NCBI GenBank assembly: GCA_041674705.1
Contig: JBAYVF010000006.1
Location: forward strand, 23,241-87,240
Reading direction: 5' to 3'
Length of the DNA: 64,000 bases
From: Candidatus Omnitrophota bacterium
GTDB taxonomy: Bacteria > Omnitrophota > Omnitrophia > Omnitrophales > Aquincolibacteriaceae
Shown: positions 13,871 through 18,078 of the stretch, piece after piece
Numbering within the stretch: the first letter of the stretch is position 1
How the letters are laid out: every line of letters starts with the position of its first letter
The notes under the pieces: generated by a model
Seen by the model: only the letters and a program-made list of their open reading frames with translations
What the model was told of the DNA's origin: nothing
Databases searched by the model: none
Translations under genes and position numbers: made by a program

Positions 13871-15643
13871 ATGACCTCCCACGAACCCATTGAAGCGACC
13901 GAGAAACTTTTTACACGCACCCGCTCGCGGTCTTTTCGAGGATGGATCCGCTTTGGGGTTTACTTCCTGATCATCGGCGTTTTCGCCCTCCTTTTGGGAA
14001 CGCACAAGCTGGATCGTCTCGAAGCTCTCGTTCGCGACAGTTTCTTAAAACAGGTTACCTGGGGGCAAGCCCATCCGGGGATTGTCCTGATCGAAATCCC
14101 GGAAACGGCTTTAGCGGAGATAGGTCCCTGGCCGTGGCCCCGAAGTTATCACGCGATTATGGCGCGCCTTTTAAGCGAATGGAAGGCGGCCGCAGTGGTT
14201 CTTGATCTCGACCTGTCCGAACCGACCGATCCCAAGAACGATCAGGATCTGGCGCAATCTCTTGGAAAGGTTGAAATCCCTTTTTATCTTCCGGTGGAGC
14301 TGAAACCCCAACAAGAGAAAAAATTCTGGGTGCATGGGATGCCCGTCGTGCTGGAGAGCGGCGAAGGCAAGAGAAGCTGGATCCATCCTTTGCCAGAGTT
14401 TGAGAAAGAAGCCCGGGGCGTCGGTCATAGTTATCTCGCTTCGGACCCCGACGGCCTTCTGAGAAGATTCGATCCCTTCATCACAGAGGGAAAAGAAAGC
14501 CATCTTTTTCTTCCGCTTCGCGTGGCGTTCGACCAAATGAAAAAACCCATCCCTTCGCCCCAAGAGTGGGAGAGGCTCGAAGATTTTCAGGGGAAGATTC
14601 TGATCCCCTGGAGCGAGGCGTGGGACCGCGGATTCACGCGTTACAATTACGCGGACCTGATTCATAGTTTTTATGCGATCCAGAAAGGGATGCGGCCCGT
14701 CATCGACCCCGGCATGGTTGCCGGAAAGATCTGCCTGGTGGGGCCCGTTGCGCCCGGGGCAACGGATCTTAAAGTCACACCTCTTAGCAGTGCGTATGCA
14801 AGGATCGGTGTTTACGCTCAGGTTTTGAATGCGGCGTTGACCAGCAACTGGGTGCGGCCCGTGTCGTTCCTGGGAAACATCCTTTGCCTTTTAGGGTGCG
14901 GAGTTTTGGCGATGACCTTATTTGTCGCGCTGAGCGGAGCGTGGTCGCTTGTGGCAGGGCTTTTACTTGTCGTCGGATGGTTCGCGTTCTGCTTCACGGT
15001 TTTCGCAAAGTGGCATTTAGGGTTCTACGTGGTCACTCCGGCCCTGCTTATGTTCTGTCTTTTCATTTTTACAGCGATCTATGCCCAGGCCACCGCGATG
15101 CGTGAAAAGTCGCATCTCTTTCACCTCGCCACGCGGGACGGACTGACCGAGCTTTATGTGATCCGTCATTTTCGTCTGATCATGAACCAGATCGTGCGTG
15201 AAGCAAGTTCCCGAAAACAGCCCTTGTCGGTCATCTTGCTCGATATCGACAACTTTAAAAAGATCAACGATACCTACGGGCATCCCGCAGGGGATATGGT
15301 GCTTAAAAAAACGGCGGCCATTATCCTTGCTTTTATCCGGAAGCGCCGGCCTTTTCGGGAGATCGATTTCGCGGCGCGCTACGGCGGTGAGGAATTCATC
15401 ATCATGCTCCGGAAAGCCGGCCTCCAGGAGGCCGCCGAGGTTGCGGCCGAACGCATCCGGAAAAAGATCGAAGAAACAAAGTTTGAGTGGGAAGGAAAAG
15501 CGATCCGGGTCACGGTGAGTTTGGGGGTCGCGGTTCGTCATGCGGGGGAAAACGTTCCTGACCCGATGGTCCATCGGGCCGATGCCGCCCTGTATAAAGC
15601 CAAAGAAGCCGGAAAAAATCGCGTTTGGAGTGAAGGCCGGTAG
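13871..15643 (+). CDS. CHASE2 sensor domain-containing diguanylate cyclase
   Basis: N-terminal TM, then IVLIEIPETALAEIGPWPWPRSYHA (CHASE2), three TM helices, then a GGDEF domain with RYGGEEF. An RxxD I-site (REID) sits at the canonical spacing. Confidence 0.85.
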   Translation: MTSHEPIEATEKLFTRTRSRSFRGWIRFGVYFLIIGVFALLLGTHKLDRLEALVRDSFLKQVTWGQAHPGIVLIEIPETALAEIGPWPWPRSYHAIMARLLSEWKAAAVVLDLDLSEPTDPKNDQDLAQSLGKVEIPFYLPVELKPQQEKKFWVHGMPVVLESGEGKRSWIHPLPEFEKEARGVGHSYLASDPDGLLRRFDPFITEGKESHLFLPLRVAFDQMKKPIPSPQEWERLEDFQGKILIPWSEAWDRGFTRYNYADLIHSFYAIQKGMRPVIDPGMVAGKICLVGPVAPGATDLKVTPLSSAYARIGVYAQVLNAALTSNWVRPVSFLGNILCLLGCGVLAMTLFVALSGAWSLVAGLLLVVGWFAFCFTVFAKWHLGFYVVTPALLMFCLFIFTAIYAQATAMREKSHLFHLATRDGLTELYVIRHFRLIMNQIVREASSRKQPLSVILLDIDNFKKINDTYGHPAGDMVLKKTAAIILAFIRKRRPFREIDFAARYGGEEFIIMLRKAGLQEAAEVAAERIRKKIEETKFEWEGKAIRVTVSLGVAVRHAGENVPDPMVHRADAALYKAKEAGKNRVWSEGR

Positions 15644-15706
15644 CTCTTCTCGCGTCTTGACCTATCCCAAGGAAAACAATACACTTTCACTTCTCGGACG
15701 CTGGGT

Positions 15707-15757
15707 GAAGGATGGAGGAGGGTGAAAAGTCAGGCACCATCCGCCATCCGTCTTCCG
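15707..15757. repeat. palindromic element, GGATGG family
   Basis: gaaggatggaggagggtg - loop - caccatccgccatccgtcttc. It shares stem words with 51145-51222 and 28565-28650. Confidence 0.7.
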
Positions 15758-15846
15758 CAATCCTGTTTTACGTGGAGGGATGGCAGAGTCATTCGCGGTT
15801 TCGCGGCGAATGACTTCGAGGAGTAAAGCGACGAGAGGTCTTCAGA

Positions 15847-16110
15847 ATGGAACAACGTTGGTCTCTTTATATTCTTGAGTGTCGCACGAAAGATTTGTAT
15901 GTGGGCATTGCTCAGGATGTGCAGAAAAGACTGGAGTTGCACAATAAGGGGCGTGCATGCCGGTACACTAAATTTCGAGGACCTGTGACGTTAGTTCATG
16001 AAGAATACTGCGGTGGTTACGCTGAAGCACGAAGACGGGAAAGAGAAGTCAAAAAGTTTTCTAGGATCAAGAAGTTAGCTTTAAGAGACCTCTCGTCACC
16101 AAAGACGTGA
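15847..16110 (+). CDS. GIY-YIG nuclease family protein (UPF0213-like, 87 aa)
   Basis: WSLYILECRTKDLYVGIAQDVQKRLELHNKG...YTKFRGPVTLVHEE.....A.RRERE.K pattern. Confidence 0.8.
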   Translation: MEQRWSLYILECRTKDLYVGIAQDVQKRLELHNKGRACRYTKFRGPVTLVHEEYCGGYAEARRREREVKKFSRIKKLALRDLSSPKT

Positions 16111-16144
16111 CTCGAGGTCCCAAAAATTATAAAACAAATTTTTG

Positions 16145-16230
16145 GGAGGGATGGCAGAGTGGTCGAATGCGGCGGTCTCGCCACCGCCTGCGAAGCGGCG
16201 GGGTCCCGCCTCTTTTTAGGCGGGAAAAAC
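16145..16230 (+). pseudogene. tRNA-Ser-like 5' fragment followed by a hairpin (non-functional tRNA remnant)
   Basis: The first ~36 nt (GGAGGGATGGCAGAGTGGTCGAATGCGGCGGTCTCG) are near-identical to the tRNA-Ser(CGA) 115 nt downstream. There is no 7-nt anticodon loop, T-arm or 3' acceptor. It ends in cccgcc-tcttttta-ggcggg. Confidence 0.5.
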
Positions 16231-16259
16231 TAGCATTTTTTGATCGGCCGTTCGTTTAG

Positions 16260-16346
16260 GGAGAGGTGGCAGAGTGGTCGAATGCGGCAGTCTCGAAAAC
16301 TGTTAATCGCGCAAGCGGTTCGGGAGTTCGAATCTCCCCCTCTCCG
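16260..16346 (+). tRNA. tRNA-Ser(CGA)
   Basis: Hand-folded cloverleaf: acceptor GGAGAGG/CCTCTCC, anticodon arm GCAGT-CTCGAAA-ACTGT, long variable arm, T-arm GGGAG-TTCGAAT-CTCCC. No encoded CCA. Confidence 0.9.
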
Positions 16347-16383
16347 TTTTGCTATGATTTTTAAATAAAAAAAGGAATAGAAA

Positions 16384-18078
16384 TTGGAATATCTGATCTT
16401 CGCCAGGAAATTCAGGCCGCAGACGTTTGAAGAGATCGTGGGGCAGGAGACCATCACCACGACCTTGAAGAACGCCATCCGCCAGGAACGCGTTCCGCAA
16501 AGCTTTCTTTTTTCCGGGCCTCGAGGTGTGGGAAAAACCTCAACCGCGCGTATTCTCGCCAAGGCTCTGAATTGTAAAGAAGGTCCTACCGAAAAACCCT
16601 GTGGCAAATGTATTTCCTGTAAAGAGATCGAGCAGGGGAATTCCATGGATGTGCTCGAAGTGGACGGTGCGTCGAACCGCGGCATTGAAGAGATCCGAAC
16701 ACTTCGCGAGAATGTAAAATTCAAACCTTCTTCGGGCCGCTACAAGATCTACATCATTGACGAAGTCCATTCCTTGACCGGCGATGCTTTTAATGCCCTC
16801 TTAAAGACCCTCGAAGAGCCGCCGGCGCATGTGAAATTTATTTTCGCCACGACGGAAGCCCACAAGGTGCCTCTCACGATCCTGTCGCGCTGTCAGCGGC
16901 TTCAATTCAAAAGGATCTCGGTCCCTGAAGCGGTTGAAAAACTTGAGAAGATCGCGCAGAAAGAAAAACTGAAGTGCGAGAAGAACGTGCTTTTCATGAT
17001 CGCGAAGGCTACGGAAGGCGCGCTTCGCGACGCGGAAAGTCTTTTAGACCAACTGGCGAGTTTTTCCGAAGGGAAGATCAAAGAAGAAGACGTCTTAACG
17101 CTTCTCGGTCTTGCGCCGGAAGCGATGTATGTTTCGGTTCTTGTGGCGATCCGCGAGAAAAAAGGGGATGAGATCTTTGGTCTCGTGAAAAAGCTTTATG
17201 AGGAAGGCGCCGACCTCGCGCAATTCGCGAAGGGGCTCTTCGAAGTTTTCCGTCATCTCTTGGTCTTGAAGACCGCGGTCAAAGCGGAGGCGTTGATCGA
17301 AGCGAGCTCCGACATGATCGTGAAGTTGAAGAAGCTGACGACCGATTTCCCGCAGGGCGAGTTGCTTTTGGCTCTTTCAATCCTTCAAAACTTGCAGATC
17401 CAGCTGCGCCGTCCGGTGGCCTCGCCCAAACTGCTCCTGGAGGCCGCGCTCCTCAAGCTTGTTTATATGGATGGCATGAAATCCGTCGACAGTCTTATCC
17501 AGAACGCTTCTTTAGCGTCGAGGGGGAGTTCCGCAGCTCCGGCCATGGAAAAAAAAACACTAAAACCGGTCACGGCCGCTAGCAGAGTTGAAATTCCTCA
17601 AAAGGGGACAGGCACCGTTTCTTCGGGGACTGGCTCCTTTTCCGCAGGAAAAGGTGCCTGCCCCCCTCAAAAAGAAACGGAGCCTGTCCCCCCAGAAGGC
17701 CTGACGCTCAATGATGTCGAAAAGGTATGGCCTCAAGTGATCGAGCTTGTAAAAGCCAAGCGCATGTCCTTGAGTCTTTATCTTGCCGAAGCCGAGCCGG
17801 CAGAAGTAGAAGGTTCGGTGATCGTCCTGGGGCTTCCCTCCGAATTCCGTTTTCATAAAGAGACGCTCGAAAAAGATCTGAACAAGCAGGTTATCGAAGA
17901 CGCGTTCGCGCAAGCCTTGGCTGTCAAGGTCCGGGTCCAATGTGTTGTGACCGAACGCGACGGGACGACTCAGGAAGCGGCCGAGGAAAGAGCCTCGGCT
18001 CAAGACGAAGGCGTGCCTGATATTGTTTCAAAGGCCCTTGAAATTTTCGACGGTTCCAAAGTTATCCGCAAAGATTGA
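16384..18078 (+). CDS. dnaX: DNA polymerase III subunit gamma/tau
   Basis: TTG start. FRPQTFEEIVGQ, P-loop GPRGVGKTSTARILAK, Zn module CGKCISC, DEVH. 564 aa. Confidence 0.9.
   Translation: MEYLIFARKFRPQTFEEIVGQETITTTLKNAIRQERVPQSFLFSGPRGVGKTSTARILAKALNCKEGPTEKPCGKCISCKEIEQGNSMDVLEVDGASNRGIEEIRTLRENVKFKPSSGRYKIYIIDEVHSLTGDAFNALLKTLEEPPAHVKFIFATTEAHKVPLTILSRCQRLQFKRISVPEAVEKLEKIAQKEKLKCEKNVLFMIAKATEGALRDAESLLDQLASFSEGKIKEEDVLTLLGLAPEAMYVSVLVAIREKKGDEIFGLVKKLYEEGADLAQFAKGLFEVFRHLLVLKTAVKAEALIEASSDMIVKLKKLTTDFPQGELLLALSILQNLQIQLRRPVASPKLLLEAALLKLVYMDGMKSVDSLIQNASLASRGSSAAPAMEKKTLKPVTAASRVEIPQKGTGTVSSGTGSFSAGKGACPPQKETEPVPPEGLTLNDVEKVWPQVIELVKAKRMSLSLYLAEAEPAEVEGSVIVLGLPSEFRFHKETLEKDLNKQVIEDAFAQALAVKVRVQCVVTERDGTTQEAAEERASAQDEGVPDIVSKALEIFDGSKVIRKD
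17549..17557 (+). promoter_or_regulatory. A9 slippery run in dnaX (candidate recoding / transcriptional slippage site)
   Basis: GAA AAA AAA ACA at codons 389-392. The -1 frame stops at 17580-17582 and the +1 frame stops at 17561-17563. Confidence 0.45.
17604..17691. repeat. 88-nt imperfect palindrome inside dnaX coding sequence (in frame)
   Basis: ggggacaggcaccgtttctt..ggactggctccttttcc / ggaaaaggtgcctgcccc..aagaaacggagcctgtcccc. Encodes GTGTVSSGTGSFSAGKGACPPQKETEPVP in the tau linker. Confidence 0.75.

Follow-up and report, generated by a model that had tools for sequence, protein, structure and literature searches.

The 64,000-nucleotide stretch of Candidatus Omnitrophota DNA analysed here (the window; contig JBAYVF010000006.1, positions 23,241 to 87,240 of the forward strand) carries a short insert in a tRNA-Ser gene next to dnaX, and this insert encodes a GIY-YIG nuclease. 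An identical contig is present in the metagenome SRR6484325. We consider it likely that the insert is a small selfish cassette, whose sole gene specifies a bare GIY-YIG domain of the UPF0213/Slx1-like type; its spread among tRNA-Ser genes may proceed via the nuclease and repair. The cassette is located between the tRNA's own promoter, leader and first 16 nucleotides on the upstream side and a second tRNA 5' segment, beginning from exactly +1, on the downstream side. In a typical family member a complete tRNA stands directly behind the cassette. Related contigs (designated by locus numbers, such as L072) display both the occupied (window, L077) and the empty (L072, L073, L081) state of one and the same site, the tRNA-Ser(CGA) gene beside dnaX. 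Our confidence is high that the cassette is an insertion element specific to the 5' halves of tRNA genes.

The insertion site and its empty counterparts

The site was compared on contigs carrying close DnaX homologues (77-86% identity). L072 is empty and displays the same GGDEF gene, the same TTGACC-17-TACACT promoter-like site and the leader hairpin, followed directly by an intact tRNA-Ser(CGA). Alignment of the window with L072 holds through the promoter, the leader and the first 16 nucleotides of the tRNA, and then diverges. Positions 15774-15789 therefore represent the 5' end that the resident tRNA originally had, and the insert comprises positions 15790-16160. Its 371 bp include tRNA positions 1-16 in a second copy, and its junction falls after position 16, in the D loop. 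In the empty L081, nothing separates the same promoter and leader from an intact tRNA-Ser(CGA), and for the empty L073 the feature confirmed is the intact tRNA-Ser(CGA) just upstream of dnaX. The occupied L077 harbors an 84%-identical gene at the same site, with a 31-nt upstream fragment and an intact tRNA-Ser(CGA) directly behind. In L080, a 12-nt fragment is followed by a non-coding insert of ~230 nt and then by a full tRNA-Ser(CGA). A first-pass annotation, made from the sequence of the window only, had proposed that a GIY-YIG element inserted at, or recombined with, a tRNA-Ser gene and that related genomes should be compared for an empty site; the contrast of L072, L073 and L081 with the window and L077 provides that site and bears the proposal out.

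The features of the locus are as follows.

15657-15685, + strand: promoter-like site TTGACC-17-TACACT, native to the resident tRNA-Ser(CGA); found by promoter scan, with the same hexamers at the homologous position in L072 (empty) and L077 (occupied)
15686-15773, + strand: native pre-tRNA leader with a conserved hairpin at ~15694-15765; aligns with the sequence directly 5' of the intact tRNA in L072 and L081
15774-15789, + strand: original tRNA-Ser 5' end, positions 1-16, upstream of the insert; exact 16-mer repeat, homology to the intact tRNA of L072 ending after GGCAGAGT
15787-15815, + strand: hairpin A (AGTCATTCGC ... GCGAATGACT), leftmost feature of the insert; perfect 10-bp inverted repeat, with a hairpin of differing sequence here in most family members
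15812-15840, + strand: left arm GACTTC-GA-GGAGTAAAGCGAC-GA-GAGGTC, an inverted copy of the right arm, holding the left 12-mer; read from the sequence
15847-16110, + strand: GIY-YIG nuclease gene, 87 aa, stand-alone UPF0213/Slx1-like type; Pfam PF01541 and PDB 1ZG2/1YWL matches, catalytic residues, dN/dS
16087-16119, + strand: right arm GACCTC-TC-GTCAC-CAAAGAC-GTGAC-TC-GAGGTC, a two-helix hairpin whose TC/TC internal loop is conserved, holding the right 12-mer; motif scan and covariation
16118-16147, + strand: hairpin B, an AT-rich palindrome (TCCCAAAAATT ... AATTTTTGGGA) abutting tRNA +1; inverted repeat
16145-16160, + strand: tRNA positions 1-16 repeated, at the right end of the insert; exact 16-mer repeat and family pattern
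16145-16213, + strand: decayed tRNA-Ser behind the cassette; 90% identity to the intact tRNA over 41 nt, no ARAGORN or Rfam match, fold
16197-16217, + strand: terminator-like hairpin GGCGGGGTCCCGCC followed by TCTTTTT; terminator scan
16260-16346, + strand: intact tRNA-Ser(CGA), acceptor stem GGAGAGG/CCTCTCC, with native downstream flank to dnaX; ARAGORN, Rfam 58 bits

Every element of the layout described in the first-pass annotation was recovered at its coordinates. The 16-mer GGAGGGATGGCAGAGT occurs in exact copies at 15774-15789 and 16145-16160, and a copy with two mismatches at 16260-16275 forms the start of the intact tRNA, on which ARAGORN and Rfam agree. When the 16-mer was searched at ≤3 mismatches, three matches arose in 1 of 100 shuffles. 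The inverted 12-mers GACGAGAGGTCT (15830-15841) and AGACCTCTCGTC (16086-16097) are likewise exact. The 355 nt between the 16-mers contain a single sensible ORF, the 87-aa gene at 15847-16110, as had been described; among the ORFs examined in the insert, the GIY-YIG gene is the only one with a domain match, in agreement with the earlier remark that neither integrase nor transposase is present. Within the 64-kb window, no further copies of the 16-mer, the 12-mers or CTCGARRTCC were found outside the cassette locus. The repeats are not a product of chance, because the same layout recurs in dozens of independent assemblies.

The tRNA copy directly behind the cassette is broken in the window. Positions 16140-16180 are 90% identical to 16255-16295, and the copy retains the acceptor 5' strand, the D arm and the anticodon stem GCGGT/ACCGC, while its loop is 6 nt long (CTCGCC) and the T arm is lost. 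The earlier description of a broken tRNA-Ser half was accurate with regard to the near-identical 5' part, the abnormal loop and the missing T arm; it needs amending in that the anticodon stem is kept, that TCCCGCC may be a degenerate 3' acceptor strand, with 6 of its 7 positions paired, and that the copy ends in the terminator-like hairpin and its T run. For the stretch starting at 16145, no tRNA is called by ARAGORN, even at 70% thresholds, nor by Rfam at E≤10, so that the tRNA calling proposed as a check for this copy scores no functional tRNA. We also considered a functional but unusual tRNA and rejected it, as lowered ARAGORN thresholds and the mitochondrial mode yielded nothing but spurious calls, located elsewhere or on the opposite strand. 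Both tRNA fragments share the acceptor strand GGAGGGA, a mismatch to the GGAGAGG/CCTCTCC stem of the intact tRNA-Ser(CGA), which lies 115 nt downstream. The native flanks are found upstream of the first fragment and downstream of the intact tRNA, where the flank CCGTTTTGC is common to L073 and L081.

The simplest history for the window would comprise three steps. An older event would have left a partial or redundant tRNA copy and a spacer in front of the functional gene. This redundant copy would then have drifted, with a changed acceptor strand, an anticodon loop cut to 6 nt and loss of the T arm, and the cassette would finally have entered the drifted copy at position 16. The copy behind the cassette has either decayed since the insertion or already was a redundant older copy. 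The same layering is observed in L014 at a tRNA-Glu, where the cassette is followed by a 30-nt fragment with a different acceptor, a hairpin and the full tRNA. The first-pass annotation had taken a disrupted paralogue to be the product of the insertion. This part does not hold: insertion normally rebuilds an intact tRNA behind the cassette, as in L077 and ~40 other loci, and the decayed copy is for that reason best regarded as a secondary event or an older layer, not as the usual outcome.

The cassette locus is flanked by a CHASE2-GGDEF gene (13871-15643) on one side and by dnaX (16384-18078) and then recR on the other. Rfam searches of the whole window at gathering thresholds and of 15600-16450 at E≤10 revealed no intron, riboswitch or other known structured RNA. 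At E≤10, the latter region returned noise, namely sX4 and a plastid UTR (untranslated region) overlapping the tRNA, and microRNA models on the leader hairpin. The leader hairpin (15694-15765) is kept in the empty sites L072 and L081, and its weak microRNA matches are meaningless.

The nuclease, its family and the hairpin arms

The cassette protein matches Pfam PF01541 with 49.3 bits against a cutoff of 22.6 (E 6.4e-13) over residues 5-73 of 87, and this is its only domain match. A profile of the family retrieves the PDB structures 1ZG2 (BH0048; E 4.7e-17) and 1YWL (EF2693; E 5.5e-12). Among 19 homologues, Y8, Y18, R28 and E65 are invariant and H32 is nearly so, and dN/dS against five relatives amounts to 0.07-0.10. 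The low dN/dS together with the invariant catalytic residues indicates that the protein is under selection to work. Searches of the protein against NCBIfam and PHROG profiles gave no matches, and the IMG/VR viral contigs contain only two distant ones (35-40% identity). On these grounds a phage origin was rejected.

Protein-alignment scans of species-representative genomes and metagenomes delivered 70 loci. A same-strand tRNA lies downstream in 44 of the 49 loci whose protein is at least ~47% identical, in 40 of these 44 within 130 nt of the stop codon. The tRNAs comprise 41 tRNA-Ser with anticodons GGA, GCT, CGA and TGA, and 3 tRNA-Glu; two of the five loci lacking a downstream tRNA are cut by a contig end. 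At distant-homologue loci (≤40% identity), mostly from Lysobacterales and other Gammaproteobacteria and serving as negative control, no tRNA was present anywhere in any of the 16 scanned. The loci share one layout, consisting of a 5' tRNA fragment, hairpin A, the left arm, the ORF, the right arm, hairpin B and a complete tRNA. In ~22 loci, the 5' fragment is identical to the downstream tRNA over 10-33 nt, starting at -3 to +1. Hairpin B is found directly 5' of the tRNA in nearly all family members and is absent before the intact tRNAs of the empty sites. The search for further GIY-YIG copies recommended in the first-pass annotation thus gave a clear answer: close homologues are almost always situated at tRNA 5' ends with the same repeats. 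The flanking genes vary among loci, a further sign of mobility, dnaX being shared with L050 only.

The junctions often fall at GGTC|ATTTT, either in the D-loop GTGGTC (L010) or in the anticodon-stem GCGGTC (L037), which suggests that joining on the left side proceeds via microhomology. Three loci, L002, L003 and L007 (L003 ~2350-2840), display the cassette and a tRNA-Ser(GGA) directly after a gene whose product, judged by eye, resembles a cytidine/adenosine deaminase of the tRNA-editing TadA type. Two clade members at 47-48% identity lack a downstream tRNA. In L018 (2781-3312) the gene follows an intact tRNA-His and two hairpins, and in L019 (880-1226) an inverted-T-arm-like sequence, GGATTCGAACCCC, directly precedes the ATG.

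The two arms on either side of the ORF, each ~30 nt long and a hairpin in its own right, form an imperfect inverted repeat, the left arm being an inverted copy of the right. The left arm has the form GAYYTC-GA-(loop, often with GCGAAGC)-GA-GARRTC, which recurs in other loci, and the sequence of its outer stem varies between loci while mostly staying paired. The right arm, of the form GAYYTC-TC-(inner stem-loop)-TC-GARRTC, overlaps the final codons of the GIY-YIG ORF. Covariation of the right arm was assessed over 27 loci aligned by position and not by pairing; a looser arm scan gave many chance matches and was excluded from the statistics. Pairing is kept in 97.5% of cells, compared with 12-51% in slid controls, and 8 of 11 pairs changed on both sides. 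Double-sided changes amount to 45 against 11.8 in shuffles, and none of 500 shuffles reached the observed score.

These data alter the view of the 12-mers, which had been read as inverted repeats flanking the gene cassette and do not form element termini by themselves. Their long-range complementarity is complete (12/12) in the window and L077 only, 11/12 in L028 and 7-10/12 elsewhere, with no compensating changes. A conserved long-range stem enclosing the ORF can be ruled out, as this complementarity decays uncompensated while the local hairpins covary. The 12-mers are, as judged from these alignments, the inner halves of the two ~30-nt arms, each covarying internally, and their complementarity is a by-product of the arms.

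Across many related loci, hairpin A, the left arm and hairpin B carry in their loops a recurrent heptamer, GCGAAGC or its complement GCTTCGC. In the window, heptamers of this type are found at 15826-15832, as a loose variant, and at 16190-16196, inside the pseudo-tRNA. GCGAAGC is an unusually stable DNA mini-hairpin, and its recurrence may hint at a single-stranded DNA stage.

Several features of the family point at mobility beyond the dnaX site. Solo or tandem arms precede the tRNA fragment in L003, L042-46, L050 and L052. An ORF-less copy of ~155 bp in L002 (3300-3455) keeps hairpin A, both arms and hairpin B. In L050, type-1 genes number at least two and are accompanied by additional arm remnants and by a single gene of divergent type; two of the L050 copies, identical at 280 of 284 nt, lie before tRNA-Ser(GCT) and tRNA-Ser(CGA) on one contig. 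In the neighbour-joining tree of the proteins the anticodon labels are interleaved, with the window (CGA) as sister to L028 (TGA) and L004 (GCT) placed among GGA loci. As to the small L002 copy itself, ~30 nt separate its arms, a 15-nt tRNA fragment lies on one side of it and the next tRNA copy on the other, and it resembles a miniature inverted-repeat transposable element (MITE).

Proposed mechanism and competing explanations

The following sequence of events could account for these observations. The ORF would be transcribed from the tRNA promoter as part of a long pre-tRNA leader. Upstream of the ORF, the native tRNA promoter is the sole site of promoter-like sequence, and the promoter scan of the window and L077 detected no such site between the ORF and the tRNA; judging from these scans, the strong native promoter now probably drives the cassette. 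Cleavage by RNase P at the tRNA 5' end would part the mRNA from the tRNA, and the end hairpins could shield the mRNA. A Shine-Dalgarno-like GAGAGG run in the left arm, 7-12 nt before the ATG, could act as ribosome-binding site. The nuclease would then make a break in a tRNA-Ser gene or in a hairpin or cruciform into which the gene or the arms fold, and host repair would copy the cassette from an occupied allele, with the upstream tRNA fragment and the rebuilt tRNA serving as short homology arms. The conserved 5' sequence of tRNA-Ser isoacceptors would permit jumps between paralogous genes. Since insertion regenerates the target, repeated invasion is expected to yield tandem arrays, as are seen. 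The start of the duplicated block coincides in all cases with the mature 5' end, as would be expected were identity under selection only within the tRNA; the 3' blocks of integrase-type islands are the mirror image of this.

A number of observations weigh against such a selfish cassette. The protein is a bare catalytic domain of 87 aa with neither linker nor DNA-binding domain, which leaves target finding unexplained. The left fragment is not recognisable in about a third of the loci, and in L005, L006/L031, L038 and L042-46 it differs from the downstream tRNA. As the duplicated segment varies in length over 10-33 nt, it does not behave as a plain target-site duplication of fixed size. The two arms of a single element frequently differ in sequence. 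Wobbles in the arms, counted on the sense strand, comprise 14 G-T against 6 A-C; this orientation weakly favours folding of the sense strand, and the hairpins may act also, or only, in RNA. In the window, a non-functional tRNA stands directly behind the cassette and a terminator-like hairpin precedes the intact tRNA. All sequences are metagenome assemblies. Our confidence in nuclease-driven, repair-mediated copying, a model derived from sequence comparison, is moderate.

One competing explanation is a domesticated host gene, in which a UPF0213 nuclease would have a cellular job linked to tRNA or DNA repair and be co-transcribed with tRNA-Ser, with the hairpins acting as RNA processing or stability signals and with the tRNA fragments and the varied positions arising from ordinary recombination among similar tRNA-Ser genes. 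Strong purifying selection, a protein without DNA-binding domain, the excess of G-T wobbles over A-C mismatches on the sense strand of both arms and the native tRNA promoter as the only promoter-like site upstream of the ORF all fit this explanation. COG4123, a family that becomes relevant at this point, is one that we take to be the tRNA m6A37 methyltransferase TrmN6/YfiC. Prokaryotic Slx1-like domains are fused to, or encoded in an operon with, COG4123 methyltransferases and TrmH-like tRNA Gm18 methyltransferases, and 1YWL is placed in the Slx-1 cluster (Dunin-Horkawicz et al., PMC1564403). If our assignment of COG4123 is right, there is an older, unexplained link of the GIY-YIG Slx1-like domain to tRNA. 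On the other side, the gene is missing at the same site in close relatives and is therefore dispensable. Regulation would hardly account for the mini copy that lacks an ORF or for arms standing alone or in tandem, and near-identical copies are present at two different tRNA genes on one contig. A single motif, internal loop included, makes up both arms in inverted orientation, a symmetry that fits DNA recognition and not 5' and 3' RNA signals. We therefore regard a purely cellular role as improbable, although it is the strongest of the competitors.

Less probable again is a hairpin-dependent transposon of the cut-and-paste or copy-out kind, in which the GIY-YIG protein would act as structure-specific transposase on the arms, and the duplication would stem from staggered cuts or from an att-like identity block on a circular intermediate. 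The inverted, hairpin-forming arms with their conserved 2x2 internal loop, the MITE-like ORF-less derivative and the recurrence of the GCGAAGC mini-hairpin motif in arms and hairpins are in line with this idea. Slx1-type enzymes cleave branched DNA. UPF0213 proteins belong to the Slx1 cluster (PMC1564403), which again would suit a structure-specific enzyme. Such a transposon is difficult to reconcile with a duplication of no fixed length and with arm sequences that differ between the ends of one element, and neither an excision footprint nor a circle junction was seen at the loci read. Furthermore, GIY-YIG enzymes are hydrolytic nucleases, and we know of no strand-transfer activity among them.

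Three further ideas can be dismissed as hardly credible, namely a remnant of a tRNA-integrating island or prophage, a group I intron with its homing endonuclease, and repeats that arose by chance next to a tandem tRNA duplicate in decay. Integration at tRNA genes and the carriage of GIY-YIG genes by introns are both classic, and the window does hold a decayed tRNA copy, but the insert is only 371 bp long with no integrase or other ORF of note, the duplicated part is the 5' and not the 3' end of the tRNA, no intron or other Rfam family appears at E≤10, viral contigs give just two distant matches and PHROG none, and the same layout is present in >40 independent loci.

The selfish cassette can also be described in more specific terms, which we put forward tentatively as a possibility clearly weaker than the general reading. 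It may represent a new class of mobile element, in which an Slx1/UPF0213-type GIY-YIG protein would be a structure-specific mobility enzyme operating on its own hairpin arms and on the stem-loops of tRNA genes, inserting in the 5' halves of tRNA-Ser and tRNA-Glu genes, rebuilding them and taking over the tRNA promoter.

Relation to known elements and further inserts

Close functional analogues are the GIY-YIG homing endonuclease genes (I-TevI, I-BmoI, phage T4 Seg). Like the cassette, they are present or absent at a defined site in a conserved gene while the host gene stays functional, and their spread is presumed to proceed via cleavage and subsequent host repair, as proposed here. Enzymes of the I-TevI type possess a linker and a C-terminal DNA-binding domain, whereas the cassette protein consists of the catalytic domain only. 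They reside in introns or as free-standing genes in phage; the cassette has no Rfam intron and no PHROG match and is found in Omnitrophota chromosomes. It also differs in preserving the host gene by duplication of a 5' segment instead of splicing, and in the inverted hairpin arms that flank it. A group I intron in a tRNA would show a ribozyme core, an anticodon-loop site and no exon duplication, whereas the cassette has a D-loop junction, a 16-nt duplication and non-coding parts of ~57 and ~50 nt.

Stand-alone UPF0213/Slx1-like proteins (BH0048, 1ZG2; EF2693, 1YWL; E. coli YhbQ) share family, size and catalytic residues with the cassette protein. For these proteins we know of no established function and of no reported linkage to tRNA genes or flanking repeats. 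The distant UPF0213 members sampled had no nearby tRNA, and only the Omnitrophota clade shows the layout with linked tRNA and flanking repeats.

Islands and prophages with tyrosine integrases resemble the cassette in targeting tRNA genes, in rebuilding the gene from a carried copy and in the partial copy that marks the other junction. The cassette is a mirror image of them, since it duplicates the 5' part (positions 1-16; 10-33 nt in relatives) and discards the promoter-proximal fragment. Islands carry an integrase and span 10-100 kb, whereas the cassette has no integrase and spans 0.37 kb. IS200/IS605 elements, repetitive extragenic palindromes with their transposases (REP/RAYT) and MITEs share hairpin ends, ORF-less derivatives and tandem clusters with the cassette family. 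Terminal inverted repeats (TIRs), as in TIR transposons and MITEs, are also found in the cassette (15812-15840, 16087-16119), imperfect in many loci. The IS200/IS605, REP/RAYT and TIR elements depend on HUH (Y1) or DDE transposases, whereas the cassette's only Pfam match is PF01541. Compared with MITEs and other hairpin elements, its arms are mutually inverted, its insertion is confined to tRNA 5' halves and its target duplication is long and variable. The Penelope-like retroelements of eukaryotes also employ a GIY-YIG endonuclease, and they produce target duplications of variable length; the cassette differs from them in having no reverse transcriptase, in being bacterial and in its tRNA target.

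Selfish nuclease genes usually spare the host gene by means of a self-splicing intron or an intein, and elements that integrate in tRNA genes commonly rely on an integrase and restore the 3' end. The cassette appears to represent a third solution, in which a spare 5' segment rebuilds the tRNA behind a 0.37-kb insert. A literature search found no description of such tRNA-Ser GIY-YIG cassettes in searchable full text, with most subscription journals outside its coverage, and the family is apparently undescribed. As a nuclease-encoding selfish element that targets tRNA genes, it has a real chance of being a new class of element. If the 87-aa nuclease were indeed the mobility enzyme, the cassette would rank among the smallest autonomous mobile elements known. 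It would also offer a function, and a first biological role, for the widespread UPF0213/YhbQ family, and a compact, possibly structure-guided nuclease specific to tRNA genes. In practical terms, the cassettes create tRNA fragments, pseudo-tRNAs and tandem repeats, which can confuse tRNA counts and assemblies of Omnitrophota.

Inserts of other kinds were noticed at the same and related sites. The insert of L080 (480-718; TCCCAA...TTGGGG, CCTTGTCA...TGACAAGG) is located in the D-arm region of a tRNA-Ser 5' fragment and is the sole insert there. One that resembles it by eye is nested in L028 (1866-1960), within the fragment upstream of a type-1 cassette. Between tRNA-Ser(CGA) and dnaX, L073 (2258-2455) and L077 (~2130-2292) contain an insert of ~190 nt that is absent from the window. 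Part of it is the T-loop and acceptor 3' segment of the tRNA in inverted orientation, and it closes with the tRNA 3' end repeated in direct orientation (CCTATCCTCTCCG in L073, CCTCCCTCTCCGCCA in L077); it also bears TCGAGGTCC and CTTCGAGG motifs that resemble the cassette arms. Signal recognition particle (SRP) RNA or another known RNA was considered for this insert and set aside, as it has no Rfam match.

A second GIY-YIG lineage, ~37% identical, is tied to tRNA-Ser at the opposite end of the gene and has no type-1 arms. In L002 (3455-3942) and L050 (2240-2740), a tRNA-Ser(GGA) copy reaches the T arm, contains one or two GC-rich hairpins in the T loop and has lost its 3' acceptor strand; the GIY-YIG gene follows this truncated copy and is itself followed by a complete, identical tRNA. 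In L007 (3393-3770), the second-lineage gene comes after an intact tRNA without a second tRNA copy. In L054 (555-854) such a gene is situated just upstream of a tRNA-Ser(CGA). On the more specific reading of the cassette as a new class of element, this divergent lineage, associated with the T-arm end of tRNA-Ser(GGA) copies within one phylum, would suggest that the strategy evolved more than once.

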